NCBI GenBank assembly: GCA_037444485.1
Contig: JBBIMI010000001.1
Coordinates: 50,110 to 114,109, forward strand
Length of the DNA: 64,000 nt
Direction: 5' to 3'
DNA from: Candidatus Micrarchaeota archaeon
GTDB lineage: Archaea; Micrarchaeota; Micrarchaeia; Norongarragalinales; Norongarragalinaceae
Each line of letters opens with the position of its first letter. The first letter of the stretch is position 1. The notes under the pieces were generated by a model. That model was not told the DNA's origin. It did not search any database and saw nothing but the letters and a program-made list of their open reading frames with translations. The position numbers were made by a program, and so were the translations under genes. Below are positions 1,697-58,302 of the stretch, piece after piece.

Positions 1697-2405
1697 ATGA
1701 AAATGAAAACTTTTGTTATAGGCGTTGACGAAGCGGGCAGATTGCAATAACTCAAGTTATTGCAAGCCAAAAGGACCCGTCATCGGCCCACTAGTAGTCT
1801 GCGCTTTCGCCGCGCCAGAGTCTTCGCTTTCTTCACTCAAGAGCGCGGGTGTCAAGGATTCTAAGTTGCTGACGCCTGAAAAGCGCGAGGCGCTCGCGCG
1901 CGAGTTGCGCGCGTTTCCGCACGCCCTCGCCGTCGTCACCGCGCGGGAAATTACTGAGGAAATGGCGCGCAAGGTTTCATTGAATGAAGTGGAAGCGCGC
2001 TTCATGGCTAGCGTGATTCAAGCAGTCGTAGAGAAAGTTGGTTTCGAGAACGTGGCGCGAATCATGGTTGATTCTCCTGACCCGACTACAGTAAAGTTTA
2101 AAGCGCGGTTGCGCAAGTATTACGACGCTGATTCGAAAGTTCATTGCGAACACAAGGCGGACTTGCGTTATACTGAAGTAGGCGCTGCTTCAATTCTAGC
2201 GAAAGTCTTGCGCGACGCTGAAGTCGCTAAAATCAAGGAGTTGTTCGGTGAAGACTTTGGAACAGGGTATAGTCACGATGCGGCGACGATCGCATTCCTG
2301 AAAAAACACTTGCGTGACCCGCGGCTCACGGAATTCGTGCGGTGGAAGTGGAGCACCGCAAAAAAATTGAGGGTCACGCAGTTAGAGTTAAACAAATTCC
2401 TATAA
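1697..2405 (+). CDS. rnhB: Ribonuclease HII, spliced (exon 1 1697-1740, exon 2 1772-2405; 225 aa)
   Basis: Joined exons read MKMKTFVIGVDEAGR|GPVIGPLVV...KDSKLL...ASILAKVLRD...GTGY, ending in a PIP-like QLELNKFL. The ORF-track version (1725) lacks the catalytic DEAGR. Confidence 0.93.
1741..1771 (+). other. BHB-type intron in rnhB mRNA (31 nt)
   Basis: Perfect 10-bp hairpin TTGCAATAAC/GTTATTGCAA; central helix GGGC/GCCA (3 of 4 pairs); bulges AG|A and AA|A; in-frame TAA at 1748-1750; removal restores the frame. Confidence 0.85.
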
Positions 2406-2460
2406 ACTTTAGGATTCTGTAACTTTAGAATTAAGTGAGTATAAATTTAAGATTAAGCAG

Positions 2461-3177
2461 TTAAGCTGGAATGCTTTCAGCGCTTGCCGTGGTCTGCTCG
2501 CCAGTTGGTTCACCTTCTTCCGCGCCTTCCTTCACGCTGGCAGCAGCTTCCGCGTTCTCCACGCTTTCCGCACTTTCTAGCTGCTGGGCTTCTGTAATGT
2601 CGAATTCTTCGTACAACTCGCTCTTGTAAACCTCGACGCGGCGCAGCGGCATGAATTTCTTGAGCTTGCCGTAAAGCTCTGTTCCCGCCTTGCCCCAAAG
2701 CACTTCTTGAATGAATTTACCGAATTCCTGTCTCGCGGCTTTCTTCTTCAACTCGCTCGCCAACGCGTTGCGTAAAAGCCGTTTTTGCGTTTCGCTGCAA
2801 GGAACGTTCGTGACTATGAGGACTTTGACCGTAAAATCGATTCCGTCACTCGATTTTACTGGCAGGATTACGCGCAACGCTTCCCTGCGCCTGCGCACTA
2901 GAGTGCTCAAGTACTCGCGCGCGATCTCGTGGCCAATGAATTTCGTGAATGCGGTGCGTCCCTTGATTTCGCTGACGCGCAAGCGAATGTTTACGTAAAC
3001 GTGACTCAAGTCATGAGTCACTTCACGCAATGGAAGCGTGATTACGCGGTTCATTAAGTGTTGCTCGTCGCTGGCAGGCACTCGCGCGACTTCCACTTCA
3101 CCCAAGAATTTTGGTGCAATAATCGCGTACCAAGATTTGGTGCGCCAAGTGTCAACCGGTTTTTTGGTTACAACCAA
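2461..3177 (-). CDS. rps3ae: 30S ribosomal protein S3Ae (eS1), acidic C-terminal tail
   Basis: DTWRTKSWYAIIAP...PLRRVEVYK. Confidence 0.95.
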   Translation of the reverse strand: MVVTKKPVDTWRTKSWYAIIAPKFLGEVEVARVPASDEQHLMNRVITLPLREVTHDLSHVYVNIRLRVSEIKGRTAFTKFIGHEIAREYLSTLVRRRREALRVILPVKSSDGIDFTVKVLIVTNVPCSETQKRLLRNALASELKKKAARQEFGKFIQEVLWGKAGTELYGKLKKFMPLRRVEVYKSELYEEFDITEAQQLESAESVENAEAAASVKEGAEEGEPTGEQTTASAESIPA

Positions 3178-3196
3178 ATAAAAACACCTTCAACCT

Positions 3197-3649
3197 TCAC
3201 TTGACTAATAGAGCTGCTTCCTCTGGAACGTAACTCCAGTCAGCTGGAATCTTTTTGCCGCGGTAATAACGCACAAGCCGCCTGATTTTTGACTCGACGT
3301 GCGCGAGCTTCACCTTATTCTGCACGTCGCGCGGGTTTTGCTTCAAGTGCTTACGCAAGCCAACCGCGGCGCGAATCAAGTCCATCAAGTCGCTAGGGTA
3401 CTTCGGCCCAAGGTTTTTTTCCTTCAAAAAAGCGCTGATGCTTTGTCCTAAAACAAGCTTCGCGTTCGGCACACCGTACTGGTCGCGCAACACTACTCCA
3501 ATTCTCGCTTCAGTCTCGCCCTCGCGCGCAAGTTTTTCAATAACTGTTTCCACTTCTTTTTTTGAAGCCCGAATCCAGCCTACACTCCGCTTGCCGACTG
3601 GCTTGTGTGAGCTCGACTTTCCCTTCTTCCGCGTATGCAACCTAGCCAA
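3197..3649 (-). CDS. rps15: 30S ribosomal protein S15 (uS15)
   Basis: MARLHTRKKGKSSS...ESKIRRLVRYY. Confidence 0.97.
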   Translation of the reverse strand: MARLHTRKKGKSSSHKPVGKRSVGWIRASKKEVETVIEKLAREGETEARIGVVLRDQYGVPNAKLVLGQSISAFLKEKNLGPKYPSDLMDLIRAAVGLRKHLKQNPRDVQNKVKLAHVESKIRRLVRYYRGKKIPADWSYVPEEAALLVK

Positions 3650-3766
3650 ATAAACAACTCCTTAAACAAAGAATCGAATTTGTTTTCAAAAGAAAAGAAT
3701 TCGACGTTTTCCACTTCACTAAAAATTTTGCGGGAACGACTATAAAAACCTTTTATTCGAAACCTT

Positions 3767-6145
3767 TTATTCGAACACTTTCACAGAAAACTCTTTCTCG
3801 CTGCGCTTTACTTCGACAACCCTTGCCTTCGCAATAACCTTGATTTCGTCAACAACGTCAGCCAACAAACGCGCTTCCTCTATTCCGACGCCGACTTCAA
3901 CGCACTCTACAGGTGCATTCAACGCGAGTCCCTTCGCTGCCTTGAACTTGCGCGTTTCACTCAACACTAAATGCATCAAGTCCACTGTTTTTTTAACGCT
4001 CGCGTCGCAAACTCGTTTCGGTTCAGGCCACCCCTGTACATGCAGACTCTCGCCGCGCTTTGCGAACAACTGCGAATAAATTTCTTCAGTAGTGTAAGGT
4101 GCGAAAGGCGCGAGCAGCTTGAGAGTAGTTTCAAGAACTTCACGTAATGCGTGCTGTGCGCCGCGTTTTGACTCTGCGTCAGCGCCGTAAATCCTGTGCT
4201 TGACGTCTTCCAAGTAGTAATCGCAGAACGAGTGCCAAAAGAACGACTGCACTGCAGTAATCGCGGCATAGTAATCGAATTCCTCCATTGCTTTAGTCGC
4301 GATGCGAATAGTCTCGCTTAACTCGCCGAGAATCCACTTGTCAACGATGCTTTCTTTCGCTTTCGCACTCGCGTCAAAGCCTTCTAGAGCCTTTTCCACG
4401 AATTTGGAGGCGTTCCATAACTTCGTCAAAAAAGATTGCGCGAAATCAATGTCCTTCCAACTAAACACGACGTCTTTTCCAGTGCGTCCACTTAAGGCAG
4501 TCCACTGGCGTAACGCATCAACGCTAGCGCGTTTTATTACGTCCTTCGCTTCAACGTAATTGCCGAGCGACTTACTCATTTTCTTGCCGTCAACACCTAA
4601 AACCATTCCATTCACGAGCACTGTCCCGAAAGCAGGTTTGCCTGTAAGCGCCAAGCAACGGTAAATAGTGTAAAACGCCCAAGTGCGAATAATGTCGGTT
4701 CCCTGCGGCCGAAGCGAAACCGGAAAAAAACGCTTGAACTTCTCCTCGTCACGCGTCCAGCCTGAAATCACGAGCGGGGTGACGCTCGAGTCAACCCAAC
4801 CGTCGCAAACGCTTTCCTCGCCGGCAAGCGAACCGCCGCAAGAACACTTCGCGCGAGGCGGCGCGTCAACAGTCGGGTCTACCGGCAACGCGTTTTCTTT
4901 TTGCGCAAATACTTTGCCGCATTTTACGCAATACCAAAAAGGAATCGGAATGCCGAAAGCCCTCTGGCGCGAAATGCACCAATCCCATTCGAGTGCGTCA
5001 ACCCAATCCAGCAATAACTGCCGCGAGTGTTCGGGAATCCAACGCATTTCCCCGCTCGCTTTTTTTACTTCTTGTTTGAAGTTGGATAACTTGGCAAACC
5101 ACTGCGTGGACTCGATGAACTCGACTGCGTGCTTGCAGCGGTCGTGAATCTTTACAGTCTGCTTTAAAGCCTCTGTTTTTTTCAACAAACCTTTTTCTGC
5201 AAGCTTGCCAACGATTTTCTCGCGCGCTTGAACAACAGTCAATCCGTCTAGCTCGCCTGCGTTCGCGAGTTCACCCCGCTCGTTCATCGCCTTTATTATA
5301 GGCAGCTTGTGACGGTAAGCCCAGACAACGTCAGTCTTGTCTCCGAAAGTGCACACCATCACGGCGCCTGTTCCGAAATTCGGGTCCACGTCAGAATCCG
5401 CCAAGATTTTTACAGTTTTTCCAAACAAAGGCGTAGTCAACGTTTTTCCAACGAATTGCTTGAAACGCTCGTCGCCGGGGTTGACGAGAACCGCAACGCA
5501 AGCGTGCAGCAATTCTGGGCGCGTGGTCGCGATCTGGAACGCTTTTCCATCGACAGTCTTGAAGTCGATAAAGTAAAGCACTGAATCCCGCTCTATTTCC
5601 TCAGTCTCCGCCTTCGCAATCGCGCTTGCGCACTTCGTACACCACAAGACCGGGTGCCTAGCGCGGTAAACCAGTTTTTTTTCGAACATCTTTAATAAAG
5701 AGTATTGAACTAGTTTCTTGTACTCGGCGCTCGTCGTGAAGTACTCTGACCGCCAGTCGATGCTGAAACCCATCAACTTCATCTGCGGCCGAATTGAAGC
5801 GATGTTAGCGTTCGTCCACTCTAGACACTTTTCGCGAAACTCTTTCTTCGGCAAACGCCCGTACTTCGCTTCAACCTTCACTTCAGTAGGAAAACCGTGG
5901 CAATCCCAACCCTGCGGAAAGAAAACATTGAAGCCCCGCATGCGCTTGAAGCGCGCTGCGAAATCGATGTAACACCAGTTTAACACGCTGCCTGTATGGA
6001 ACTCGCCGGTTGGGAAAGGCGGGGGAGTGTCTATCACGAAAACAGGTTTTTTCGAATCAAAGTAATCGAACTCGTGAATCTTTTTTTCCTCCCAAACCTT
6101 CAACCATTTTTCTTGAATTTTTTCGTGAACGAGTTTATCAAGCAC
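3767..6145 (-). CDS. valS: Valine--tRNA ligase
   Basis: IDTPPP, HIGH variant HTGS, TTRPEL, DWCISRQ, KMSKS. Confidence 0.95.
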   Translation of the reverse strand: MLDKLVHEKIQEKWLKVWEEKKIHEFDYFDSKKPVFVIDTPPPFPTGEFHTGSVLNWCYIDFAARFKRMRGFNVFFPQGWDCHGFPTEVKVEAKYGRLPKKEFREKCLEWTNANIASIRPQMKLMGFSIDWRSEYFTTSAEYKKLVQYSLLKMFEKKLVYRARHPVLWCTKCASAIAKAETEEIERDSVLYFIDFKTVDGKAFQIATTRPELLHACVAVLVNPGDERFKQFVGKTLTTPLFGKTVKILADSDVDPNFGTGAVMVCTFGDKTDVVWAYRHKLPIIKAMNERGELANAGELDGLTVVQAREKIVGKLAEKGLLKKTEALKQTVKIHDRCKHAVEFIESTQWFAKLSNFKQEVKKASGEMRWIPEHSRQLLLDWVDALEWDWCISRQRAFGIPIPFWYCVKCGKVFAQKENALPVDPTVDAPPRAKCSCGGSLAGEESVCDGWVDSSVTPLVISGWTRDEEKFKRFFPVSLRPQGTDIIRTWAFYTIYRCLALTGKPAFGTVLVNGMVLGVDGKKMSKSLGNYVEAKDVIKRASVDALRQWTALSGRTGKDVVFSWKDIDFAQSFLTKLWNASKFVEKALEGFDASAKAKESIVDKWILGELSETIRIATKAMEEFDYYAAITAVQSFFWHSFCDYYLEDVKHRIYGADAESKRGAQHALREVLETTLKLLAPFAPYTTEEIYSQLFAKRGESLHVQGWPEPKRVCDASVKKTVDLMHLVLSETRKFKAAKGLALNAPVECVEVGVGIEEARLLADVVDEIKVIAKARVVEVKRSEKEFSVKVFE

Positions 6146-6236
6146 TTCAATCCACTCGAACGCTCCGAGAAAAAAACAAAAAACGGCGACTAGAAAACGC
6201 AGAAATGGGAGAACTGCTGCGTGGTTGACGTTTTTC

Positions 6237-6407
6237 CTACTTCTTTTTGAAGCGCGCGGTCCACTTCAAGCGCGACGGATTGCGTTTCAACGCCGCGTTC
6301 TTCTCGCACTTTCTTGAACAGTAACGCACTGCAGACCCGTCTTTCTTGAACAACGTGACTCCGAAACCTGCTTGAATCTCTTTCCCGCAAAAACTACATG
6401 ACGCCAT
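6237..6407 (-). CDS. rpl24e: 50S ribosomal protein L24e
   Basis: Manual translation MASCSFCGKEIQAGFGVTLFKKDGSAVRYCSRKCEKNAALKRNPSRLKWT; follows L7Ae and S28e as usual. Confidence 0.95.
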   Translation of the reverse strand: MASCSFCGKEIQAGFGVTLFKKDGSAVRYCSRKCEKNAALKRNPSRLKWTARFKKK

Positions 6408-6506
6408 TAACCTTTCAACCTTTTCCGTTCTTCAACCCTTTCCGCTCGCTAGCTCCAGCTTGCTAACTCTATTCGCTAGCGCTCACTAGCTCCAGTTTGC
6501 AGTCCT

Positions 6507-6866
6507 TCATTTTTTTTCTTGCTTTTTCTGCTTCAACGGACGCGCTTCCCGCTCCGTCTCTAACAACATCAACACGTCTCCCTTTTTTACAGGTCCTTTA
6601 AGGTTCCTGCGAATAACGCGGCCCTTGTCGCGGCCTTCAAGCACTTTAACCATCACTTGCTTGACTTCACCGAAAACGCCTGTCCTGCCAATGATTTCGA
6701 CGACTTGCGCCGGAAAACCTTCAAACGCGCCGGCTGCAGCCTGTTGCGCTTGACGTGGTTCGAATGTTTTCTTACCCTCGTTTTTCGAAGCACGCTCTAA
6801 AGCTTCCTTCTCCGCTTTTTTCTCGATGCTCTTTATTTTAGTCTTGCCGCCCAACTGCAAAACCAC
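6507..6866 (-). CDS. rps28e: 30S ribosomal protein S28e with N-terminal extension
   Basis: [12 protein letters not shown]...[27 protein letters not shown]; start uncertain. Confidence 0.92.
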
Positions 6867-6968
6867 CTAAATCCAAAAAATTTTCAAAAAGATTTTCAAA
6901 AAAAACGATAAAACGATAAAACGAACGATAAAAATTATTCCTAAAAAATTTTCCTAAAAAACAAAAAA

Positions 6969-7463
6969 TTAAGCTACTTCTTTTTCTTCAACTTTTTCTT
7001 CCTTAACTTTTTCTTCTTTCGCTTTCTTCGCTGCTGGCTTCACTGTTTTTTTCGCTTCCTTTTTTTCCGCGCCAGCAGCGCCTGCGCTTGCGCTTGCAGT
7101 AGCTTCTTTCGGTAGTTCTGAAATTATTTCCTTGACTAGCGCTTCAGCGTTGCCTAGCTTCGTGATAGCGATTGCAGCTGTTGGAACGCTTAAGCCAGCC
7201 GCCTTGCCGAGGCTCGCTTTCTCGGGAGTGAAAGCGTAAGGCACGCGTTTCTCGACGCAAAGCATCGGCAAGTGCATGACTATTTCCTCCGGGTCGACGT
7301 CTTCAGCGATTACGACGAACTTCGCGTCCCCGCGTTCTATTGCCTTCGTAGCTTCGTTAGTGCCTTTGCGCACTTTACCAGTGTTTCTCGCTTCCTCTAC
7401 AGCCTCGAGAATCTTGTTTTTCAAGCTCGCTGGAGTCTGAAAATTTACGTAAGACTTTGCCAT
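6969..7463 (-). CDS. rpl7ae: 50S ribosomal protein L7Ae with Ala/Lys/Glu tail
   Basis: [17 protein letters not shown]...[21 protein letters not shown] upstream of ATG 7463. Confidence 0.96.
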
Positions 7464-7667
7464 TCTCATCACCTCGACGCATTGAAAACGCGTTCACTGA
7501 TTCGAAGCAAAACCGAATACGAAAAAAAGTAGTTTTGCGACAAGATTTTTGTGTGAGAACCAATTTAAATACGTTTTGCATTAATAGAAAAAAAATAAGA
7601 TGAGAAAACGGAAAAGAAGATGAAAAAAAATAAAAAAAATTTTCTGTTCGGGGGGAGTGCATTTAAG

Positions 7668-8666
7668 TTGAAAAAAAAGTTTTCGGTTTTAATCGTTTTC
7701 TCGATTGCTGGAATAATCTTGTTTGGCTGCGTTTCGCAACCGCAAGCACCTGCTAGTGCTGGCGCTGCAAACGAACGACTAGAAGCAAGCGTTGCAAAAA
7801 TCGAGAATAGAATCAGTGCTTTAGAAAGCCGGTTGTCGATGCTCGAAAACGCTTTCGCTAAAAAATTGCTTGAACTCGGCGTTCCTCTGCGTTTTTACTA
7901 TGACTCGAGCTGCGCGTTCTGCGCGAATGCTGATTACGTTAGCATGGCTGCTGGCTTGATAGACAGGCTTAAAGACCAAGGAATCCAGCTTGAAATCATT
8001 GACGTGAAAGGAAACTTCACGCAGCCCAACGCCCTTGGACTCAAACGCTTGCCTGCGTTTTACGCACCTGCATTCGCGCTTGCGAAAAGCAAGGAGTTAA
8101 GCGAGTTTTTCAAGACTCTTGAAGAAAACCGTTTTACGATAATCAACGCGGTGAACGGCTTGGCTGCGTTGACTAACGACGCAAGCGAACTCGTTGGCGG
8201 CGATTGCAACCTCGGCGATGGAAAAGTGCGGTTACGCGAATTCTATTCAGAAACATGCGCGTTTTGCGTGCGCATGAACTACGCTAACGGCACAGAATAC
8301 AATCCGAAAAACAATCCGCGTTACGCTAGCGTTTCCAGCGAAGCGGTTGAAGAAGTCAACAAGGCGCTTGGAGATAAAATAATTTACGAAAAATTCTGTA
8401 TTCTACTGCATACCGCGCCGGACAACCTGCGACTCATCGGCGTAAACAAAAGCGATGACGAACTTTGCGCCGCGAAGTACTCGCGCGAGGAACTCGATAA
8501 AGCGAATTCGCTTGCAAGCGATTACGCAATTCAAAGCGCGCCGTTCTTCGTGGTAGACTGCAAGTACGTCTTCAACGCTGTGACTGCAGACAAACTCAAG
8601 AAAAACATTTGCGCGGTACGCCCCGACATCTGCAGCAGCGTCAACAACACGAATTCGAGTAGTTGA
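7668..8666 (+). CDS. Secreted lipoprotein with two thioredoxin-like CxxC domains
   Basis: Signal peptide with lipobox LFGC, short coiled coil, SSCAFC and ETCAFC, C-terminal SAPFFVVDC. Confidence 0.65.
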   Translation: MKKKFSVLIVFSIAGIILFGCVSQPQAPASAGAANERLEASVAKIENRISALESRLSMLENAFAKKLLELGVPLRFYYDSSCAFCANADYVSMAAGLIDRLKDQGIQLEIIDVKGNFTQPNALGLKRLPAFYAPAFALAKSKELSEFFKTLEENRFTIINAVNGLAALTNDASELVGGDCNLGDGKVRLREFYSETCAFCVRMNYANGTEYNPKNNPRYASVSSEAVEEVNKALGDKIIYEKFCILLHTAPDNLRLIGVNKSDDELCAAKYSREELDKANSLASDYAIQSAPFFVVDCKYVFNAVTADKLKKNICAVRPDICSSVNNTNSSS

Positions 8667-8677
8667 GAGTTAACCGC

Positions 8678-9979
8678 TTAAAAGTTAACCCTCAATTCGG
8701 CAAGCAATTCACGCGCTCGGTCCACGCTTATTTTTTTCTCTTCAACCATCTTCCGCGCTATAACGTCAATCAACTCGCCTTTAGCGCCCGCCAAAACCGC
8801 GATGTTCTTCGCGTGCAGTTTCATGTGCCCCGCTTGAATTCCTTCGGTAGCAAGCGCGCGAAGCGCAGCGAAATTTTGAGCCAAGCCCACCGCTGCCATA
8901 ACCTCGCCTAATTCGCGTGCAGTCTTCACGCCGAGAAGCTTTACGCAAACGCGCGCCACCGGATGCGTTTTCGTCGCGCCGCCGACTAAGCCGAGCGCGA
9001 CAGGCAGAGTTATTTCTCCGATTAAGTCCCCTTTCTCGTTCTTGTAGTACTTCGTCAAAGGCGAGTATTTGCCTGAAAGCGCTGCGAAAGCGTGCGCGCC
9101 TGCCTCGAGCGCGCGCCAATCGTTTCCAGTGGCAATCGCTACAGCGTCAACGCCATTCATTATTCCCTTGTTGTGCGTGCAAGCGCGGTATTCGTCGCTT
9201 GCCGCGAACGCGTAAGCGTCGAGAATGCGTTCGATTGTTTCCTCTCCGCCGCAAACTCCTTCGACAGCGAGCTCGCTTTTAGGAAAAACAGCTTTAGCGT
9301 GAGCAGTGCGGTTGACTGCGAGGTTTGAAATGATGCGCAAGCGCGCGCTCGCTCTAGTAAGCTCTTCCAATTTAGGGGCAAGCGCTTCACTCATCGTGTT
9401 CACCGTATTCGCGCCCATCGCGTCCCGCACGTCGACAAGCAAGTGCACTGCAAGCATTTTGCCGCGCGGCGAATCGACGACGCGCGATTCAATCCCTCGC
9501 GCGCCTCCACCGTGTTCTACAAGAGTTTTGTCTAGAGTGTTGACGAAAGCAATCAGTTTTTGTTCCTGTTCTTTAATAATCTTGATTGCGTTAGCCCAAT
9601 CGTTTTCATTAAAACGCGGATTAACGAGCTGAATCTGTCCAATCATCACGGGCTCAGTCGAAGTAGTAGTGAAACCGCTTGCAGCCCGCGCGATTTTCGC
9701 GGCTTTGCTTGCAGCAGCGACCACGCTTGGTTCTTCGATTGCGAAAGGAATAAAGTAATCTCGGCCGTTGATTTTAAAGTTTGTAGCGATTCCGATCGGC
9801 AGTTGCGTTGTTCCAACAACGTTTTCAATCATTCTATTCGCTGTTTCCGCGCCCAGCCCACCGTAATGGCTTAAAATCGTCGCTTCTTCTTGAGTTAACC
9901 CAGCAAAGTTTCGCACGAATTCGAGGCGTTCGGCAGCGGAAAGCTTGTAAAACTCTTTCACTTCAGAAGATTTTTCCAT
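8678..9979 (-). CDS. mvaA: HMG-CoA reductase, class II type
   Basis: MIENVVG, EEPSVVAA, DAMGAN, THNKGIMNG, GIQAGHMKLH. Confidence 0.93.
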   Translation of the reverse strand: MEKSSEVKEFYKLSAAERLEFVRNFAGLTQEEATILSHYGGLGAETANRMIENVVGTTQLPIGIATNFKINGRDYFIPFAIEEPSVVAAASKAAKIARAASGFTTTSTEPVMIGQIQLVNPRFNENDWANAIKIIKEQEQKLIAFVNTLDKTLVEHGGGARGIESRVVDSPRGKMLAVHLLVDVRDAMGANTVNTMSEALAPKLEELTRASARLRIISNLAVNRTAHAKAVFPKSELAVEGVCGGEETIERILDAYAFAASDEYRACTHNKGIMNGVDAVAIATGNDWRALEAGAHAFAALSGKYSPLTKYYKNEKGDLIGEITLPVALGLVGGATKTHPVARVCVKLLGVKTARELGEVMAAVGLAQNFAALRALATEGIQAGHMKLHAKNIAVLAGAKGELIDVIARKMVEEKKISVDRARELLAELRVNF

Positions 9980-10165
9980 GACCCCACCAAAAAAAATTAT
10001 TTCTCCAACGAATTAAAAACCCCTCTAAAACCCTTCTCTGCTTCGGCAATCAACGATTTTCCTAGAGTTTAGAACGATTTAAAAAAAACAACTCGCAATA
10101 AAAAACTGGTAAAAACTAGTTGACTGATTAACGAAACGCTTAACAATCGCTCGAGGTAGTCGCGA

Positions 10166-11212
10166 GTGACTGCTGGAATAATTGGTTACGGGACCGCAAT
10201 ACCGCGCTTGCGCATAAAGCCAAGCGAAATAGCGCGAGTGTGGGGTAAAGACGGCGAACGCGTAAGCGCGAGCTTGAACGTCAAAGAAAAAGCAGTCGCA
10301 GCCTTCGACGAAGATTCTTGCACTCTCGCTGTTGAAGCAGCGAGGGAAGCGCTTGAAACAGCGCGAATCAAGCCAACGCAAATTGGAGCCGTCTTCGTTG
10401 GAAGTGAAAGCAAACCGTACGCAGTCAAGCCAACTGCAACCATAGTCGCTGAAGCAATAGAAGCGACACCCAACCTCACTGCAGCCGACTTCGAATTCGC
10501 TTGCAAAGCAGGCACTACTGGAATTCAAGCACTCATGGGAATGACTGAAAGCGGAATCATTGATTACGGGATTGCAATAGGTTCAGACACTGCTCAAGGC
10601 AGGCCTGCAGACGCTCTCGAGTACACCGCAGGCAGCGGTGCAGGCGCTTTCATAATCGGAAAACAAGACCCTATTGCGACAATCGACGCTACCTTCTCGT
10701 TCACTACAGACACTCCGGATTTTTGGCGCAGGCAACACGCGGAATTCCCGCGCCACGCAGGCCGTTTTACTGGCAAGCCAGCCTTCTTCAAACACGTGGT
10801 AAGCGCGGCTCAAGGACTCATGAAAAAAACAGGTTTGACTGCAGAAGATTTCAATTACGTGGTCTTCCATCAGCCCAACGGCAAATTCCCGTTGGAAGCA
10901 GGCAAGATTCTCGGCTTCGAAAAACAAAAACTCGAACAAGGACTAATAACGCCTTACATTGGCAACACTTACAGCGGAGCTTCAATGATTGGGCTCGCAA
11001 GCGTCTTAGACGCCGCCAAGCCCGGCGACAAGATTCTAGTAGTCTCTTACGGCAGCGGCGCAGGCAGCGATGCGTTTGCTATCACCGTCACTGAAGCAAT
11101 AAAGCAATCCGGCCGCAGGCCGAAGAAAAGTGTTTTCGAAAAAATCCGCGACAAGGAATACGTTGACTACGCACTCTACGCAAAACACAGAAAGAAAATC
11201 AAGAGCTTGTGA
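10166..11212 (+). CDS. HMG-CoA synthase (archaeal type)
   Basis: VGSESKPYAVKP, EFACKAG, FHQPNGKFP, SYGSGAGSD. Confidence 0.95.
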   Translation: MTAGIIGYGTAIPRLRIKPSEIARVWGKDGERVSASLNVKEKAVAAFDEDSCTLAVEAAREALETARIKPTQIGAVFVGSESKPYAVKPTATIVAEAIEATPNLTAADFEFACKAGTTGIQALMGMTESGIIDYGIAIGSDTAQGRPADALEYTAGSGAGAFIIGKQDPIATIDATFSFTTDTPDFWRRQHAEFPRHAGRFTGKPAFFKHVVSAAQGLMKKTGLTAEDFNYVVFHQPNGKFPLEAGKILGFEKQKLEQGLITPYIGNTYSGASMIGLASVLDAAKPGDKILVVSYGSGAGSDAFAITVTEAIKQSGRRPKKSVFEKIRDKEYVDYALYAKHRKKIKSL

Positions 11213-11279
11213 GGAGATTAAATTGGGGTTGAGTGAAAGAAAAAAAATTTTCTTTATTTATTTAGGCTATTTACTGTTT

Positions 11280-11579
11280 ATGCTGAACTCCAGCGTGGCT
11301 GTAGCAAACCAGGAAAACCCGTTTAGAGAAATAACAATGATTTCAATGCTCGTTGCGCCGATTGCTTTCATAATCTGGTTGATTTACAAGATTGTGAATC
11401 CAGCTGACTCTCGAGCGCTTACAGTAATCAAAGGCAGCTTAATCTGGAGTTTAACAATCTTTTTAGGTTCCTCGCTTTACAACATTACTGTTTGGAAACC
11501 ACGATTCCCAATAACACCAGACTACGTTTACCGAGTTGATTCAATGGGCTTTAATCACATTTCCAGCAAGCGCTTTTAG
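11280..11579 (+). CDS. Small two-TM membrane protein, unknown
   Basis: Two hydrophobic segments; ATG at 11280; lies between HMGS and thiolase. Confidence 0.45.
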   Translation: MLNSSVAVANQENPFREITMISMLVAPIAFIIWLIYKIVNPADSRALTVIKGSLIWSLTIFLGSSLYNITVWKPRFPITPDYVYRVDSMGFNHISSKRF

Positions 11580-11638
11580 CCGCGCTTGAAATCAAAATAC
11601 TTAAAGCCAGTAAACAAGTTAAAAACAAAAAAAAGAAA

Positions 11639-12811
11639 GTGAAACTCATGCGCAAGGTTTCAGTAATAGGGGCTGCTTACACAAAGTTCGGCGAACACTG
11701 GGAAAAAAGCTTTAGAGAACTCGCCGTCGAGGCGGGCGTAAAAGCACTGCAAGACGCGCACATGGAAGGCAAAGACATTCAAGCGCTTTACGGCGCCAGC
11801 ATGGCCAGCGGCACGTTTATCGGACAAGAACACGTTGGCGCGCTCTTAGCAGACCAAATGGGTTTAAACCCGATTCCAGCAATACGTTGTGAAGCTGCCT
11901 GCGCCAGCGGCGGCGTTGCGTTCAGGCAAGCTTACCTCGCGGTTGCAAGCGGTGCTTACGACATCGTCGCAGTCGGAGGCGTCGAGAAAATGACTGACGT
12001 CAGCGTCGAAGAAGCCGCAACTGCGCTTGGAGGCGCGGGCGATCAAGAATGGGAATTGTTTTACGGCGCTACTTTTCCAGCGATTTACGCGTTAATGGCG
12101 CAAAAATACTTGCACGATTTTAATGCGAAAGAAGAAGAATTCGCTGCAGTAGCAGTCAAAAACCACTACAACGGCGCGAGAAACCCGCTAGCACAATACC
12201 AGAAAGAAATCACTATCGAAGACGTCATGAACTCGGGCTACATCGCCACACCACTCAAACTACTCGACTGTTCACCAATCACTGACGGCGCTGCCGCAGT
12301 CATCCTTTGCGCTTCAGAACACGCAAAGAAATACACCGACCAACCAATCGAAATAATCGCGAGCGCGCAAGCCAGCGACACGCTCGCGCTTGCAAGCAGG
12401 CACTGCCTCACAGAACTCCATGCTACTAAAGTAGCCGCGAGAGAAGCATTCAAGCAAGCCCGCCTCACGCCAAAAGACATTGACGCAGCCGAAGTACACG
12501 ATTGCTTCACGTCCGCGGAAGTGATGGCGATCGAAGACTTAGGATTCTTCGAGAAAGGCAAAGGCGCGAAAGCAACTAGCGACGGCGCGACTGCATTAAA
12601 CGCAGAAATCTCAGTCAACACCAGCGGCGGCTTGAAAAGCTGCGGCCACCCAGTTGCCGCAACCGGCATCAAGCAAGTATGCGAAATCGTGGAACAACTC
12701 CGCGGCGGCGCGAAAGAAAGACAAGTAAGCGGCGCGGAAATAGGCTTGACTCACAACGTTGGGGGCAGTGGCGCGACTGCGGTTGTCCACATATTCAAGA
12801 GAGGGGATTAA
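11639..12811 (+). CDS. Acetoacetyl-CoA thiolase (archaeal, SCP2-like)
   Basis: EAACASG, EVHDCF, GHPVAATG, HNVGGSG. Confidence 0.93.
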   Translation: MKLMRKVSVIGAAYTKFGEHWEKSFRELAVEAGVKALQDAHMEGKDIQALYGASMASGTFIGQEHVGALLADQMGLNPIPAIRCEAACASGGVAFRQAYLAVASGAYDIVAVGGVEKMTDVSVEEAATALGGAGDQEWELFYGATFPAIYALMAQKYLHDFNAKEEEFAAVAVKNHYNGARNPLAQYQKEITIEDVMNSGYIATPLKLLDCSPITDGAAAVILCASEHAKKYTDQPIEIIASAQASDTLALASRHCLTELHATKVAAREAFKQARLTPKDIDAAEVHDCFTSAEVMAIEDLGFFEKGKGAKATSDGATALNAEISVNTSGGLKSCGHPVAATGIKQVCEIVEQLRGGAKERQVSGAEIGLTHNVGGSGATAVVHIFKRGD

Positions 12812-13214
12812 AATTAGGCATGCTTTACCGTTGATTTGGCGCAGGATTCCAGAACGCTACAACCTACTCGGCTCAACATGCCAAAACTGCGGCGTTTCTT
12901 ACTATCCTGAACGCAAGATCTGTCCCAAATGCAGACGCCACGGAAAACTCGTTAAACAAAAAATGCCTCGTGAAGGCAAGATCGTCAGTTACACTCAAGT
13001 GCATGCTGCTCCAAAAGGCTTCGAGCACGAAACGCCTTACTGGCTGGCAATCGTAGAACTCGACAACGGCGCCAAACTAATGGCGCAAATCGTGGACTCG
13101 CCGAAAGAAAAAATCGTTGAAGGCGCGCGCGTGCAAGCCTGCTTCCGCAAAATATTTGAAGATAACGAAGAAGGCGCGATCGCTTACGGATACAAGTTTA
13201 AAGTCGTTTACTAA
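12759..13214 (+). CDS. DUF35 Zn-ribbon/OB-fold protein (thiolase-HMGS scaffold); true start probably near 12813-12831
   Basis: WRRIPERYNLLGSTCQNCG..CPKCR, C-terminal YGYKF; adjacent to thiolase. Confidence 0.9.
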   Translation: MGAVARLRLSTYSREGIKIRHALPLIWRRIPERYNLLGSTCQNCGVSYYPERKICPKCRRHGKLVKQKMPREGKIVSYTQVHAAPKGFEHETPYWLAIVELDNGAKLMAQIVDSPKEKIVEGARVQACFRKIFEDNEEGAIAYGYKFKVVY

Positions 13215-13248
13215 GCTTATTTTTAAATCCGTGGGAGAATAGAAAATT

Positions 13249-14022
13249 ATGAATGGCAAGGAAAAACGGCCAATCCTACTTGAGCTTGATGCGGTGCACC
13301 CTTGCTGGTGTATCGAGTCTATCAACAAGGTTGAAGGCGCGCAAATAAGCTTAGTCTCTCCTCTTGTTTCTGAAAAAGACGTTTCCTGCGGTTATTATGA
13401 ATTAAACGCGCCGAACGTCGACTTGTTTATTGACACGTTGAAAAAACATCCTTGGGTTAAAGAAATCCTTGTAATCGAGAAAACAAAAAACCATGCTTTC
13501 GCGCTGATAAGGTCGCAGCATGATAAGCTAATGATAGAAACAATGGTTAAAACCGGCGCTCTGCCGCTAGAGCCTACGCTCACGAAAAGCGGTTTCGACA
13601 CCGTAGCGTTAATCGTGCCAGACGACAAGACGCTTCGCGTGCTGGCCAGCGCATTGAAAGAGAATTTCGAGTACAAAATTCGGTTTAAAAAATATTTAGT
13701 GAAAGAAAAAAAAGTTGGTGGAGAAAGATTTGGCGGTACAGGATTGTTTTCGTCAACCGACTTCTTGAAATTGAAGCTTGCAACAGAAAGCCTCTCACCA
13801 AAACAACGCGAGGCTGTTATGCTGGCTTCAGAAAAAGGCTATTGGGCAACTCCAAAACGCGTTGATCTAGAAGAACTCGCACGCCTTGCTGGCATAAATA
13901 AAGCGACATTCAGCGAACACTTGCGTAAAGCTGAAATAAAACTACTTCCGATCATTGCAGACTTGCTGAAAAAACTCGTCTTTAAAAATCCACCAGCCAG
14001 CGCTGGCGCAAGACCAATATAG
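13249..14022 (+). CDS. Bacterio-opsin-activator-type HTH transcriptional regulator
   Basis: LSPKQREAVMLASEKGYWATPKRVDLEELARLAGINKATFSEHLRKAE; N-terminal HPCW. Confidence 0.85.
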   Translation: MNGKEKRPILLELDAVHPCWCIESINKVEGAQISLVSPLVSEKDVSCGYYELNAPNVDLFIDTLKKHPWVKEILVIEKTKNHAFALIRSQHDKLMIETMVKTGALPLEPTLTKSGFDTVALIVPDDKTLRVLASALKENFEYKIRFKKYLVKEKKVGGERFGGTGLFSSTDFLKLKLATESLSPKQREAVMLASEKGYWATPKRVDLEELARLAGINKATFSEHLRKAEIKLLPIIADLLKKLVFKNPPASAGARPI

Positions 14023-14044
14023 GGCCACACACACTAATTTAGTT

Positions 14045-15592
14045 ATGGAAGCAAGTCAACCAAAGCACTTCAGCGACGGCGACGAGTGGATGCTAGCTGA
14101 AGCCTTTCCAGGCATCGATTTTTTCTTTAGTCAAATTTTCTTGCATGCATTCGTCAACGACTTAGAAAACAGTGTTGGACGTAATTATTCGAAGGTTCTT
14201 GCAGTGTTCGATGGAAGCAAGGGATACCACATAGCTTTTTATTACGGCAAGCACGATTGTCTAGAGTTCACGCGGCACGTGCTCAACAAAATTGTTGCGG
14301 TCCCTTCATTCGGCGATGAAATAAACGCTAAAATCCGCCGCTACTCCGACGAGCTCGTGCAGCACGCTGCCAGCATCGCAAATCAAAACTTAGCATCTAA
14401 AACCAACGCTGAACTGTGGGAAATATTAAAAGAACACGTCGAACGGCACACGAAGCTCTACGAGTGGGGCTGGCTGTCAAACGCTACTGACATGTTCTAC
14501 CCCGAATACACGGATTACTTGAAGAATTACTTGCGCTCGAAAACAAACTCAGAAGAGCAAATTAACCAGTTGCTCGTGGCACTCACTGCACCTGAAGAAA
14601 AAAGCGAGGAAGCCAAACAACAAGAAGAATTCCTGCGCCTAGCCGCGCGGTTGTGGGAAGACAACTACCACCGCGAGCTGATAGCGAAAGCAAGCGAAAG
14701 CGAAATAATCGCTAGGTTAAAACCGTGGGCTAAGCAAGCGCTAGAGGAATTCCACGCGAAGTACGGCGTAATCGGCGCGCTCTACGTAGGCGAGCCTTTC
14801 ACGCTTGAACACTACGCATTAGAATTAAAACACTTATTTGCGAAAGGAGTCAGCCCACGCGAAGAGCTTGCCGCGCTCGATTCAGCGCTTGAAAAACGTG
14901 CGTTGGAAAAGCAAAGGCTATTGCACGAGCTTGAAGTGGATGAAAAGCACACGCGCTTGTTCGCAGTTTACGCTGGCTTCATGCTCACTAAATTTTACCG
15001 GCGCTACGCGCAAATCAGAGCGCTTTACGCGATGCGGAGTGTATTAAAGGAAATTGCCCGTCGTTTTGGAATCACGTTGAAACAAGCGCGTTTTATGTTA
15101 ACGCCAGAATACAAGCAACTACTCACGCAAGGTGGCTTTAACTTGATGCAATTGCGTGAGCGCGAGAAATTCTGCGTTCTTTACTCCGAGAAAGACTTCG
15201 ACAAAATCTTTGTAGGTAAAGAAGCGCGAAAGCTTGCCCCCAGCGCTGAGGAAAAACACGACGCCGAAGTGAAAGAACTGCGGGGGCAATGCGCTCGCGT
15301 AGGCAGCGCGCGGGGGCGCGTTAAAATAATTTTGAGTACAGCCGACTTGCCTAAAATGAGGCAAGGTGACGTGCTTGTTGCAATCGCAACGAATCCTGAT
15401 GTTGTGCCAGCAATGAAGAAAGCAAGCGCGATTGTAACTGAACAAGGTGGCGTGACTTGCCATGCGGCGATTGTTTCCCGCGAACTAGGAATTCCTTGTG
15501 TAATTGGAACGAAGGTTGCGACGAAAGTTTTAAAAGATGGTGATTTTGTGGAAGTAGACGCAACGAAGGGCATTGTAAGAAAAGTTGCTTAG
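14045..15592 (+). CDS. Protein with C-terminal PEP-utilizer phosphohistidine (swivel) domain
   Basis: GDVLVAIATNP...IVTEQGGVTCHAAIVSRELGIPCVIG; helical N-terminus with no recognisable ATP-grasp. Confidence 0.85.
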   Translation: MEASQPKHFSDGDEWMLAEAFPGIDFFFSQIFLHAFVNDLENSVGRNYSKVLAVFDGSKGYHIAFYYGKHDCLEFTRHVLNKIVAVPSFGDEINAKIRRYSDELVQHAASIANQNLASKTNAELWEILKEHVERHTKLYEWGWLSNATDMFYPEYTDYLKNYLRSKTNSEEQINQLLVALTAPEEKSEEAKQQEEFLRLAARLWEDNYHRELIAKASESEIIARLKPWAKQALEEFHAKYGVIGALYVGEPFTLEHYALELKHLFAKGVSPREELAALDSALEKRALEKQRLLHELEVDEKHTRLFAVYAGFMLTKFYRRYAQIRALYAMRSVLKEIARRFGITLKQARFMLTPEYKQLLTQGGFNLMQLREREKFCVLYSEKDFDKIFVGKEARKLAPSAEEKHDAEVKELRGQCARVGSARGRVKIILSTADLPKMRQGDVLVAIATNPDVVPAMKKASAIVTEQGGVTCHAAIVSRELGIPCVIGTKVATKVLKDGDFVEVDATKGIVRKVA

Positions 15593-36070: not shown

Positions 36071-36419
36071 CTAGTATTAATAACTAGTTGCTGGCTTTTA
36101 GCCCGCTAAACTCAGGAATTCAAGAAAAGAAACTTCAAGAAAAGAAAAACAAAATAAAAAACAATGTAAAAAACAACAAAACCAAACTACAAAAACTAAA
36201 CAACAAAAACAAAAGGGGAGCGTAACAAGAGTGTTTTAGAAATTTTTTCTAAAACTTTTTTTGTTTGCCTCTCTTTTGCTTCTTTCTTTTTCCTTTTCTT
36301 TTTTTCTCTTTTTTTCATCGCGTTCGTTGCGCCGCGTCGTCTCACCCGCAGAATCAAGTGACGTGTTTTTACTTTTTTTCTTTTTAGAATAGCGGGGGGA
36401 GGATTTGAACCTCCGACCT

Positions 36420-36465
36420 TTACCCGGAAAAAAGTTTTTTTGACTTTTTTGAAAACTTTTTCCCT
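36420..36465 (-). other. tRNA-iMet intron at 43/44 (46 nt)
   Basis: Central helix ACCC/GGGT, bulges GG|A and AA|A, inner helix GGGAAAAAG/CTTTTTTCC. Confidence 0.87.
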
Positions 36466-36501
36466 CCGGGTTATGAGCCCAGCGGGCACTCCTGGCTACC
36501 C

Positions 36502-36534
36502 TTAGAGCACCACCAACCACAAAATCGATGTTGT
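36502..36534 (-). other. tRNA-iMet intron at 9/10 (33 nt)
   Basis: Central helix GGGG/CTCT, bulges TA|A and AA|G, inner imperfect hairpin. Confidence 0.8.
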
Positions 36535-36614
36535 TACCCCGCTGTAGTTTCGGAGTGCGTTTAAAGAATAAGTTGTGCGTGGTTATAATACTTTCTGGAA
36601 ATACGTTTAGACGT

Positions 36615-37951: not shown

Positions 37952-38079
37952 GGGCTCGTAGCTCAGCTTGGCAGAGCGACCGGCTCTTAAGCGAAAAACT
38001 AAGCGAAAAACAGCAAGCGTTGTTTTTCTCGCGGTTTCGGGAAACCGGTAGGTCGAGGGTCCGAATCCCTCCGAGCCCG
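37952..38079 (+). tRNA. tRNA-Lys(CTT) with 54-nt anticodon-loop intron (about 37990-38043)
   Basis: GGGCTCG TA GCTC AGCTTGGCA GAGC G ACCGG CTCTTA[intron]A CCGGT AGGTC GAGGG TCCGAAT CCCTC CGAGCCC G. Confidence 0.9.
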
Positions 38080-39130: not shown

Positions 39131-39239
39131 CGAGTTATATGCGGCAAGCACATGCAGCGAGTATAAATACTTTTTTCGTTAAATTATTTTTGTTGATTTG
39201 TGTTGTTTCGTAGTCGCGGCCAAGCCGCCTTGCAGGGAT

Positions 39240-39278
39240 TGCGTTTGCATGAGTTGAGTTTTTGCGTGACGCACTTAA
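39240..39278 (+). other. tRNA-Cys intron at 8/9 (39 nt)
   Basis: Central helix AGGG/ACTT (3 of 4 pairs), bulges AT|T and AA|G, inner GCGT/ACGC, outer TTGC/GCAG. Confidence 0.8.
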
Positions 39279-39306
39279 GGCAGAGCGGCCATGCGCCCGC
39301 CTGCAG

Positions 39307-39346
39307 GTGTTGTTCCTGCACTGTTGCGTGGGTGCTGGATGCAGTA
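39307..39346 (+). other. tRNA-Cys intron at 37/38 (40 nt)
   Basis: Central helix CTGC/GCAG perfect; 3' bulge TA|A. Confidence 0.88.
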
Positions 39347-39352
39347 AGCGGG

Positions 39353-40300
39353 TTAGGCGAGTTCGACTCTCGCTCCCTGCTTTATCGCGCTGATAACGCG
39401 CGCGTTAGCGCGCTTGGCTTGCTCTTCGTTTAAGCCTTTCGTAATCACGTTGCCGTTAGGCAGCAAAACTATCTTGCCTGGACGCGTTTTTAATTCGATG
39501 ATGCGTTTTGTTTTTAAGCCGCGCACGTTGTTTTGGAAAAAGTATTCTTTGTTACCGCATAACGCGAATGCTGGCGTGGAAGCGTCGTCAGCCTCAACGA
39601 TTTCCTGGTTTTTTTCGGCAATGTTTTTTTTTGTTTTTGGGCTGCGTGCACACGCGACGCACGCCAAGTTTTTTTGTAGGTTTATGGTTGTTGAAGCGCC
39701 AGTTTTCTTGTCAGCGTAAAAAAGAATTCCGGCGTAACGCGGCTTGCCTTCAAGCAAACTAATCAATTCTTCAACTTGTTTTTTCGCGGCTAAAGCGGTT
39801 GCAGTTGGAGAAATTCCTTCCACGCTGCAGCTTCGCGGCAGCGTTTGTTTTGGATTCCAGCAAGCAAAGCAAGGCGTTTTTTCTGGAATTATTGTTGAAA
39901 TCATGACTTCGCTGCGTATTGCGGCAGAGAAAATCCATGGCTTGCGCGCGCGCAAGCAGTACTCGTTCAAGACGAAGCGCGTTTGAACGTTGTCTGTGCA
40001 GTCTAGCACGATATCCGTTTTTTCAAGCAATCGCGTAACGTTCCATTGGTTTAAGTGTTCGGTGGAGGCAATCACGTTCGCGCCAGACTTCTCTAATTTT
40101 TTTTTGGCTGCTGCGGCTTTGAGAAAGCCGACGTCGCCAGCATCGAATAGTTTCTGCCTCGGCAAGTTGTTTTGTTCGATAAAGTCTCTATCGATTAAAA
40201 CAAGTTTTTGGAAGCCTGTTCTCGCTAGTTGTAATGCGGTGTTCGCGCCTATCCCGCCGACTCCGACTACTGCAACTACTGTATCCAGTGTTTTTCGCAT
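39353..40300 (-). CDS. ThiF/MoeB (E1-like, UbaA family) adenylyltransferase
   Basis: VVGVGGIG, IDRDFIEQNNLPRQ, LDCTDN, TPCFAC, CVAC. Confidence 0.88.
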   Translation of the reverse strand: MRKTLDTVVAVVGVGGIGANTALQLARTGFQKLVLIDRDFIEQNNLPRQKLFDAGDVGFLKAAAAKKKLEKSGANVIASTEHLNQWNVTRLLEKTDIVLDCTDNVQTRFVLNEYCLRARKPWIFSAAIRSEVMISTIIPEKTPCFACWNPKQTLPRSCSVEGISPTATALAAKKQVEELISLLEGKPRYAGILFYADKKTGASTTINLQKNLACVACARSPKTKKNIAEKNQEIVEADDASTPAFALCGNKEYFFQNNVRGLKTKRIIELKTRPGKIVLLPNGNVITKGLNEEQAKRANARVISAIKQGARVELA

Positions 40301-40380: not shown

Positions 40381-42567
<2,187 letters not shown>

Positions 42568-52166: not shown

Positions 52167-52186
52167 CTTCAAAGTTGTGAAAGAAA

Positions 52187-55631: not shown

Positions 55632-55637
55632 GAAAAA

Positions 55638-56538: not shown

Positions 56539-56632
56539 CCGCTGTTATCCCTCGCGATATTAATGTAAACTCTAATTTTAATACTTTCAAACAAATAAAA
56601 AGGGGAGAAAGGCGCAAAGCGCCTTTAGAGGT

Positions 56633-57670: not shown

Positions 57671-57805
57671 TTTTCTTCTCCTCCGGCAGTAAGCCTGCTT
57701 TTGCAGGCATTTTCGCCCAACTAGTTGAAAAACATTAGAAAAAAAGGGTTTTTAAACTTGAGTCAACCTCGCTGCCAGTGAATTAAATAAGCGGGCCCGC
57801 CGGGA

Positions 57806-58033
57806 TTCTCGTGCACTTTTTTCTTAAATTTTTTTCTTTTCCTAACAGTTTTTTTTTAAGTCTCTCCAATTCTTTCTTTTCCAAGGTTTTTTCTTTTCTT
57901 TAAAGAAAAAAGCTTTTTTCCAAGGTTTTTTCTTTTCTTTAAAGAAAAAAGCTTTTTTCCAAGGTTTTTTCTTTTCTTTAAAGAAAAAAGCTTTTTTCCA
58001 AGGTTTTCTTTCTTTCCAAGAAAGAAAAGCTTT
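57806..58033 (-). other. tRNA-Arg T-loop intron at 59/60 (228 nt)
   Basis: Central helix TTCG/CGAG, bulges AA|A and AA|T, T-stem as outer helix. Confidence 0.82.
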
Positions 58034-58035
58034 TT
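57881..58035. repeat. 39-nt tandem repeat, three exact copies plus one variant
   Basis: CCAAGG starts at 57881, 57920, 57959 and 57998; no spacers. Confidence 0.9.
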
Positions 58036-58054
58036 CGAACCCGGGACCACGGCT

Positions 58055-58103
58055 GTCCGCAAACACGCCTGCTTTTTCAGCGGTTTTCTTGCGTCCGCGT
58101 TTT
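58055..58103 (-). other. tRNA-Arg intron at 37/38 (49 nt)
   Basis: Full BHB: helix TTGC/GCGG, bulges GG|A and AC|A, inner AAACGCG/CGTGTTT. Confidence 0.9.
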
Positions 58104-58302
58104 CCGCAAGCCGTTAGTTTATCCAGGCTAGCCTACGGGCCCGTTTTGCAAACAATTTTTGGCGTTTCTTGATTAAATAATGTTGTTGTAGGCGAGTGGG
58201 AGTGGCTTATAAAAACTAGTGAGTGCAAAACTTTTTGTTTATTTTCGTTTTTTAGTAAAGGTTTAATTCCGGGTTTTTTGTTTTTTCGGTGGGTGGTTTA
58301 TA

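Follow-up and report, generated by a model that had tools for sequence, protein, structure and literature searches.

Five genes in a 64,000-nucleotide (nt) stretch of the genome of a Candidatus Micrarchaeota archaeon are interrupted by short inserts, and these inserts are very probably archaeal bulge-helix-bulge (BHB) introns that would be removed by a splicing endonuclease (EndA) of the epsilon-2 type together with the ligase RtcB. Eight such inserts were found, seven of them in tRNA genes and one in rnhB, the gene encoding RNase HII. A sequence-only reading of this DNA had proposed the same eight introns in five genes (seven tRNA introns and one in an mRNA) at these positions, and both the borders and the products could be reproduced here. 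The whole stretch analysed, called the window below, corresponds to C1:50110-114109 (contig C1) of a metagenome bin of 961,727 bases in 58 contigs, with a completeness rating of 95%.

The BHB motif was described as a central helix of 4 base pairs (bp), H, lying between two 3-nt bulges, with h as the outer helix between exon and exon and h' as the inner helix between intron and intron. The values given with each intron below are the paired positions in H out of four and the lengths of h and h'.

The probable intron in rnhB

The rnhB gene is located at the beginning of the window and consists of the following parts:

1697..1740, forward strand: rnhB exon 1, with the ATG at 1697, encoding MKMKTFVIGVDEAG plus AG, the first two bases of an Arg codon
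1741..1771, forward strand: rnhB intron, 31 nt, relaxed HBh' form (H 3/4, h 1, h' 10)
1772..2405, forward strand: rnhB exon 2, with the third base of the Arg codon followed by GPVIGPLVV... to the stop (Pfam RNase_HII, 2.6e-38, profile positions 8-198 of 199)

Read from the ATG at 1697, the gene gives MKMKTFVIGVDEAGR and then a stop in frame, and the remainder lies in a different frame. The insert splits the DEAGR/G motif (the slash marks the junction) and is made up of a 10-bp hairpin, the bases GCCA, which pair with GGGC in the exon, and a terminal AA. Deletion of 1741-1771 joins AG/A as an Arg codon and restores the frame across DEAGRG.

This junction was then compared among related genomes by searching for rnhB exon 2 in 60 relatives. 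The comparison covers 56 informative genomes, this one included; two genomes whose contig ends at the junction (G058 and G019) and three without a match were left out of the count. The junction is uninterrupted (...GVDEAGR/GPVIGP) in 46 of the 56, and an insert of 29-43 nt is present at the identical junction in ten, which belong to five of the eleven families (G000, which is this genome, G025, G016, G021, G004, G014, G048, G035, G054 and G049). Seven of the ten inserts shift the frame and three are in frame but bear a stop, and both exons are intact. The distribution is patchy even within genera, with three carriers and two non-carriers in genus g10 and one carrier among the four genomes read in genus g6.

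Moreover, the inserts have a pairing in common. Four exon bases before AG (or CG) pair with the four insert bases that precede its last two, and these pairs co-vary between genomes: CGGC/GCCG in two, TGGC/GCCA in three, GGGA/TCCC in two and TGGT/GCCA in one. The co-varying exon bases are synonymous, as they fall on third positions of Ala and Gly codons. The central helix is complete (4/4) in eight of the ten genomes and has a single mismatch in the other two, one of which is the genome studied here, and a hairpin of varying sequence abuts it in nine. Inserts with H of at least 3 and h' of at least 4 amount to eight of ten, versus 77 of 20,000 shuffled ones. The conservation of the insert together with its compensatory pairing excludes decay or an assembly error, and a relaxed HBh' intron fits these data.

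A contig of a relative, present at low depth in run X2, deserves mention in relation to this gene. It aligns up to position 1648 and resumes exactly at 1773, where the first complete codon of rnhB exon 2 begins, one base past the 3' splice site; in between it has 74 different letters, versus 124 here (1649-1772). This fits a variant without the rnhB intron or with another one.

The interrupted tRNA genes

All four tRNA genes of the window are interrupted, namely an initiator-like tRNA-Met, tRNA-Lys (CUU), tRNA-Cys (GCA) and tRNA-Arg (GCG). Their seven inserts are found at positions 9/10, 43/44, 37/38 (three times), 8/9 and 59/60. To set the borders, deletions that yield a cloverleaf were sought first, and the fit to BHB geometry was applied afterwards. 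When the inserts were removed and the products were submitted to ARAGORN, the four spliced tRNAs were canonical cloverleaves of 71-75 nt. The genes and introns are as follows:

36390..36543, reverse strand: tRNA-Met (CAU), initiator-like, with two introns; canonical 75-nt cloverleaf when spliced; found by the T-arm/acceptor screen
36534..36502, reverse strand: Met 9/10 intron, 33 nt, relaxed (H 4/4 with two G-U pairs, h 1, h' 2, bulges TAA and AAG)
36465..36420, reverse strand: Met 43/44 intron, 46 nt, HBh' (H 4/4, h 0, h' 13)
37952..38079, forward strand: tRNA-Lys (CUU); Rfam score 51.9 bits, also found by ARAGORN in intron mode; cloverleaf when spliced
37990..38043, forward strand: Lys 37/38 intron at the canonical position, 54 nt, relaxed hBH (H 3/4, h 5, h' 1)
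39232..39381, forward strand: tRNA-Cys (GCA), with two introns and discriminator U; cloverleaf when spliced; found by the T-arm screens, with no Rfam match even up to an E-value of 10
39240..39278, forward strand: Cys 8/9 intron, 39 nt, near-strict hBHBh' (H 3/4, h 4, h' 5)
39307..39346, forward strand: Cys 37/38 intron, 40 nt (H 4/4, h 6, h' 0)
57792..58142, reverse strand: tRNA-Arg (GCG), with two introns; cloverleaf with one D-stem mismatch when spliced; found again by ARAGORN after removal of the T-loop insert
58103..58055, reverse strand: Arg 37/38 intron, 49 nt, strict hBHBh' (H 4/4, h 5, h' 7)
58033..57806, reverse strand: Arg 59/60 T-loop intron, 228 nt, hBH (H 4/4 as TTCG/CGAG, h 5 formed by the T-stem, h' 0)

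For the Met 9/10 insert a length of 32 nt was also tried and was rejected, as it gives a wrong cloverleaf, and 33 nt fits.

These genes largely escape standard tRNA finding. ARAGORN without intron mode reported no tRNA in the window, and its lax intron mode gave 168 matches that are essentially noise, with tRNA-Lys among them. The only clear tRNA in the Rfam search of the window was the same tRNA-Lys (37952-38079), with a gap of 56 nt in the anticodon loop, and no additional tRNA was gained there by going up to an E-value of 10. Two of the four tRNAs were wholly missed by Rfam, and tRNA-Met appeared as a weak partial match at C1:86507-86611. A screen for an intact T-arm and an acceptor strand with its complement upstream returned exactly three genes, Lys, Cys (39232) and Met (36543, reverse strand), with zero false matches. 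In the fourth gene, tRNA-Arg (GCG) at 58142..57792 on the reverse strand, the T-loop is itself interrupted by an insert. Beside the tRNA-Met gene, an A/T-rich hairpin region (36202-36290) gave several weak, sub-threshold Rfam matches to miRNA and sRNA models, which are most likely due to chance.

It should also be noted that three tRNA introns of the genome are unusually long, with 228 nt (57806-58033), 218 nt (C34:1395-1612) and 194 nt (C19:6910-7103), and exceed the published range for archaeal tRNA introns, given as 11-175 nt in PMC2738675. On the sense strand all three have stretches of six consecutive T, and such stretches might interfere with archaeal transcription.

Geometry of the splice sites

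In the BHB motif, the cut by EndA falls two bases inside each bulge. All eight inserts fit this motif in the register that the product requires, with H complete (4/4) in five and 3/4 in three. Both outer helices, as in the strict hBHBh' form, are present only in Arg 37/38 and Cys 8/9, the latter with one mismatch in H. The other six introns are relaxed, of the HBh' or hBH form, which bears out the several relaxed helices pointed out in the earlier reading. Relaxed forms are described in the main text of PMC3239211 as accepted members of the BHB family where EndA has broad specificity. Wherever several registers are compatible with the product, the best geometry always selects the register used, and this is also the register of the earlier reading. 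Six of the eight introns start with A and six finish in AA, counts that agree with those reported before.

A lenient criterion was also applied, which asks either for H 4/4 with 4 bp or more in a flanking helix or for H 3/4 with longer flanks. Six of the eight introns pass it, versus about 0.25% of the position pairs in the genome (1,184,288 of about 4.7e8 tested).

The splicing endonuclease and ligase

EndA is absent from the window, as had been stated, and the gene is located on contig C2. The genome holds this single EndA gene, which encodes 388 amino acids with the Pfam domains in the order N, N, C, C along one chain (tRNA_int_endo_N twice and tRNA_int_endo twice). Residues 13-388 align with residues 13-387 of 4fz2_A (E-value 6.8e-128), the ARMAN-2 enzyme, and the other solved EndAs match the central catalytic unit only, with E-values of 6e-20 or weaker. 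The ARMAN-2 enzyme is reportedly also the subject of Hirata et al. 2012 (PMC3488258).

With its three units (N domain, catalytic unit and structural C domain) and its likeness to the ARMAN-2 enzyme over the full length, the protein is predicted to be of the epsilon-2 type. The classification called for by the earlier reading thus yields a full-length 4fz2 homologue and not a strict alpha2 or alpha4 enzyme. The ARMAN-2 EndA is a three-unit epsilon-2 homodimer (Fujishima et al. 2011, PMC3239211). According to the main text of that paper, its substrates in vitro include a strict intron at 37/38 as well as one at 59/60 with the relaxed hBH motif, and some ARMAN-2 tRNAs have T-loop introns. By analogy, the EndA found here may share this broad specificity. 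An ARMAN-2-like EndA would also agree with the placement of the organism in the Micrarchaeota (DPANN). Archaeal genes of the window include those for S3Ae, S28e, L7Ae, the CCA-adding enzyme, RadA, aTrm56 and TFIIE-alpha.

Both enzyme genes, EndA and rtcB, are present in the genome, and the process is probably as follows. Each gene would be transcribed with its insert, and the exon-intron borders would pair to form the 4-bp helix, the two 3-nt bulges and one or both outer helices. A single epsilon-2-type EndA would cut two bases into each bulge, and the RtcB ligase would join the exons and probably circularise the intron. The outcome would be tRNA cloverleaves and, in rnhB, the AG/A Arg codon in the catalytic DEAGRG with the frame regained.

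Other interrupted genes in the genome

The earlier reading had suggested that other genes that look frameshifted in this genome may be spliced, and rtcB supports this with two inserts. Its Pfam match on contig C30 comes in three pieces. Intron 1 (C30:2998-3048, 51 nt) is in frame with a stop and has H 4/4, h 2 and h' 13; intron 2 (C30:3126-3160, 35 nt) has H 4/4, h 1 and h' 2. The order is ...VMPDGHEG, intron 1, GFPIGGV...GGVGY, intron 2, DINCGVR..., and when both inserts are removed an open frame of 483 amino acids results, in which the RtcB motifs are contiguous. As rtcB is interrupted, the splicing ligase itself would depend on splicing.

Inserts of a similar kind are present in at least ten more tRNA genes and in the small-subunit (SSU) rRNA, which also agrees with that suggestion. 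The rRNA operon (L039, G000:C12:10500-27353, positions 5789-14222, reverse strand) is heavily interrupted. The SSU rRNA match spans 2959 nt, versus a model of 1478 positions, and one SSU insert of 97 nt was mapped. The large-subunit (LSU) rRNA match comes in three pieces with an excess of 450-1100 nt, and its 3' end, past model position 2533, is unmatched. The large rRNA inserts might be other intron types.

Regarding protein genes, cbf5 of this genome has no interruption, and the archaeal metK (PF01941) was not found in the 95%-complete genome. The NFACT gene (27447-28601) looks truncated and was considered as a further candidate; it was discarded, as separate small genes follow it and no second exon was seen. 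A genome-wide search for mRNA introns, combining the BHB motif with the joining of frames, reduced 1,184,288 motif matches to 145,246 that join frames, 2,279 that are 'strong' and short, and 495 with a compact hairpin. This search did not discriminate: the rnhB intron was included and did not stand out. There may be additional mRNA introns in the genome.

A palindromic repeat shared by introns

The Arg 59/60 intron consists largely of about four tandem copies of a palindromic repeat of about 39 nt, from the 5' splice site onward. The repeat starts AAGCTTTTC. Ten introns (the eight of the window and the two of rtcB) were compared with the genome by BLAST, and repeat loci were counted at 30 nt or more. 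The family comprises 26 loci genome-wide, found outside the window on contigs C4, C5, C6, C12, C13, C14, C16, C19, C21, C28, C29, C30 and C34.

Sequences 84-98% identical to the repeat of Arg 59/60 occur in the SSU rRNA insert, in rtcB intron 1 and in the introns of ten further tRNA genes. It thereby occurs in 11 tRNA genes and 12 introns. ARAGORN confirmed the tRNAs across the junction for Arg-GCG, Val-CAC, Arg-UCU, Trp, Thr-CGU, Val-UAC, Glu-UUC, Pro-CGG, Glu-CUC (with two repeat introns) and one gene on C14; the eleventh is a class-II tRNA on C21, outside this confirmed set. The other loci are the 97-nt SSU rRNA insert, rtcB intron 1 and four in the excess stretches of the LSU rRNA, and about ten of the 26 are intergenic, several of these lying directly past stop codons or between convergent genes. 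Furthermore, the BLAST comparison matched 33 letters of the Met 43/44 intron to a portion of the SSU rRNA insert (contig C12), with an identity of 94%. The rnhB intron and five of the seven tRNA introns of the window match nothing else in the genome by BLAST.

In all 14 introns read (12 in tRNAs, the SSU rRNA insert and rtcB intron 1) the repeat begins between -1 and +4 nt of the 5' splice site. It is found at 59/60 in five different tRNAs, and their 3' ends are similar. The repeat unit was also matched in 24 of the 60 relatives, and the five relatives' loci that were opened are all tRNA introns beginning with the repeat.

The five introns at 59/60 (57806-58033, C4:21391-21468, C5:4220-4359, C14:2133-2225 and C19:6910-7103) lie in a T-loop target, TTCGAA or TTCGAT, that is palindromic. 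They end in CGAGAA, CGGGAT, CGAAAA, CGAAAA and CGGAAT. These ends resemble an imperfect direct copy of the target, a copy that also forms the central helix.

It is possible, and we propose it only tentatively, that a mobile family of BHB introns is built on the AAGCTTTTC repeat, which would spread as DNA and survive in essential genes through the EndA-cuttable structure that it brings or creates. In a TTCGAA T-loop target, an imperfect duplication would itself make the central helix, and this would explain why five tRNAs are hit at 59/60.

These results bear on the last proposal of the earlier reading, according to which a permissive EndA allowed introns to spread from tRNAs into mRNAs. The proposal is supported, as the two conditions named as refuting it, a strict EndA and a lack of further introns genome-wide, were both checked and both came out in its favour. 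The direction of spread, from tRNAs into mRNAs, is less certain: rtcB intron 1 is the only one of the mRNA introns with sequence in common with tRNA introns, and the rnhB intron is unlike all others in the genome.

Assessment of the interpretation and alternatives

Several points weigh against reading the inserts as introns removed by EndA and RtcB. The Met 9/10 and Lys 37/38 inserts fail the lenient criterion, their motifs are weak and indistinguishable from chance by geometry only, and it is the cloverleaf argument alone that speaks for them. In the rnhB intron of this genome a G-A mismatch interrupts the central helix, and the outer exon helix is nearly absent (h = 1). The position of the cut, two bases into the bulge, was taken as given, though the outcome was consistent in all cases. 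The activity of the EndA is assumed from an identity of about 60% to the ARMAN-2 enzyme, and we infer cutting and joining in the cell from the DNA alone. As for the repeat, it could be a common intergenic element that invaded introns secondarily, although the fact that it is anchored at the 5' splice site speaks against this.

The alternative that survives best accepts the introns as real and denies that they form a system or have spread. They would have independent origins, the A and AA ends would reflect an A-rich composition, and the repeat would be a common intergenic repeat that landed in dispensable DNA. This agrees with the rnhB intron matching nothing else in the genome, with the intergenic position of about ten of the 26 repeat loci, several of them past stops or between convergent genes, and with the ambiguity of several splice registers, where A's are repeated at the borders. 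Random landing, however, would not place the repeat at the 5' splice site in 14 of 14 introns; the same 5' anchoring appears in five of five loci in relatives, and five tRNAs carry the repeat at 59/60 with similar 3' ends. Independent origins are hence rather unlikely, although they deserve serious consideration.

It is very improbable that the rnhB and rtcB inserts stay in the RNA and that the ribosome skips them, through bypassing or a programmed frameshift. A stop shortly past the take-off point and a hairpin in the insert would suit this idea, and such a combination is reminiscent of known bypass elements. Nevertheless, no matching take-off and landing codons are present in the register that gives GPVIG, and the inserts vary between 29 and 43 nt with three of them in frame. 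The kept feature is instead the pairing of the exon with the 3' end of the insert plus the abutting hairpin, which is the BHB signature and is common to tRNA introns, which cannot be translated.

Least probable of all is that rnhB is an unspliced pseudogene, or owes its insert to an error of assembly or sequencing, and that the tRNA 'introns' belong to decayed genes: the genome is indeed a 58-contig metagenome bin, and its sole strong DNA match may be the assembly's own sample and so is not independent, but decay would not preserve one junction with differing inserts, intact exons and compensatory pairing in ten genomes of five families, all four tRNAs fold perfectly after excision, and no other cloverleaf with these anticodons was seen among the Rfam hits of the genome, whose anticodons were only partly read.

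Relation to known splicing systems

Removal by a broad-specificity EndA, as proposed here, has its closest parallel for the tRNA genes in the pre-tRNAs of ARMAN-2, also a member of the Micrarchaeota with a three-unit EndA, in which non-canonical introns including 59/60, relaxed hBH motifs and tRNAs with several introns are described (PMC3239211). Compared with the main text of that paper, the window differs in having all four tRNAs interrupted and in the sites 8/9, 9/10 and 43/44. The introns here reach 228 nt, whereas the substrates tested in PMC3239211, as given in its main text, had 13 and 25 nt. The words 'mRNA' and 'protein-coding' do not occur in the main text of PMC3239211. The tRNA half of the present findings is the published state of the ARMAN lineage, denser here.

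For the intron in rnhB the comparison is with the crenarchaeal cbf5 gene, whose pre-mRNA reportedly carries a BHB intron described in Watanabe 2002 and Yoshinari 2006. According to Yokobori 2009 (PMC2738675), cbf5 is the sole archaeal protein gene with a confirmed intron of the splicing type, and a relaxed splicing endonuclease is proposed to have given rise to pre-mRNA introns in Crenarchaeota. The idea of a permissive endonuclease is therefore not new, as it is already in print for that group. As far as that source describes it, the cbf5 intron is also a short BHB insert in the coding sequence, with a relaxed motif, a patchy presence at one site and a broad-specificity endonuclease, and both it and the rnhB intron are ignored by annotation pipelines or called frameshifts. 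Unlike the cbf5 intron in that account, the introns described here are in rnhB (and rtcB), in a DPANN archaeon, and the enzyme is an epsilon-2 EndA and not a heterotetramer. Lying at a coding site, being patchy and breaking the frame, the rnhB intron would work like the cbf5 type, but it is not the cbf5 intron. A literature search, in which subscription journals were mostly out of reach, returned no account of an rnhB intron nor of mRNA introns in Micrarchaeota or DPANN, and the rnhB intron is apparently an undescribed, rare example inside a protein gene.

The shared repeat recalls the Thermoproteales, in which sequence-related tRNA introns have reportedly been proposed to transpose (Fujishima et al. 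2010, Mol Biol Evol, is said to be the source). In both cases a sequence is common to different tRNAs and positions, which suggests copying between sites. The module here differs in being a palindromic repeat of about 39 nt that is also found in rRNA, in an mRNA intron and in intergenic DNA, and the lineage and the enzyme differ as well. The novelty lies in the gene, in the phylum and in the type of enzyme, and possibly also in an intron family based on a repeat that extends across RNA classes.

Biological meaning

The most fitting view of the introns is that of passengers which are tolerated and in part mobile. In the lineage seen here, interruptions affect the majority of the stable-RNA genes and no fewer than two protein genes. 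In practical terms, tRNA finders miss most tRNAs of such genomes, and gene callers label the intron-bearing protein genes as truncated or frameshifted.

The repeat common to tRNA, rRNA and mRNA introns offers a handle on the origin and movement of introns. If the mobile family were real, archaeal introns of the splicing type would have been born from a transposable repeat and would be seen here crossing from stable RNAs to mRNA. Moreover, a second and a third gene, in another phylum and with another type of endonuclease, would show that the splicing of mRNA by the tRNA machinery follows repeatedly from a permissive EndA and is not peculiar to Crenarchaeota.

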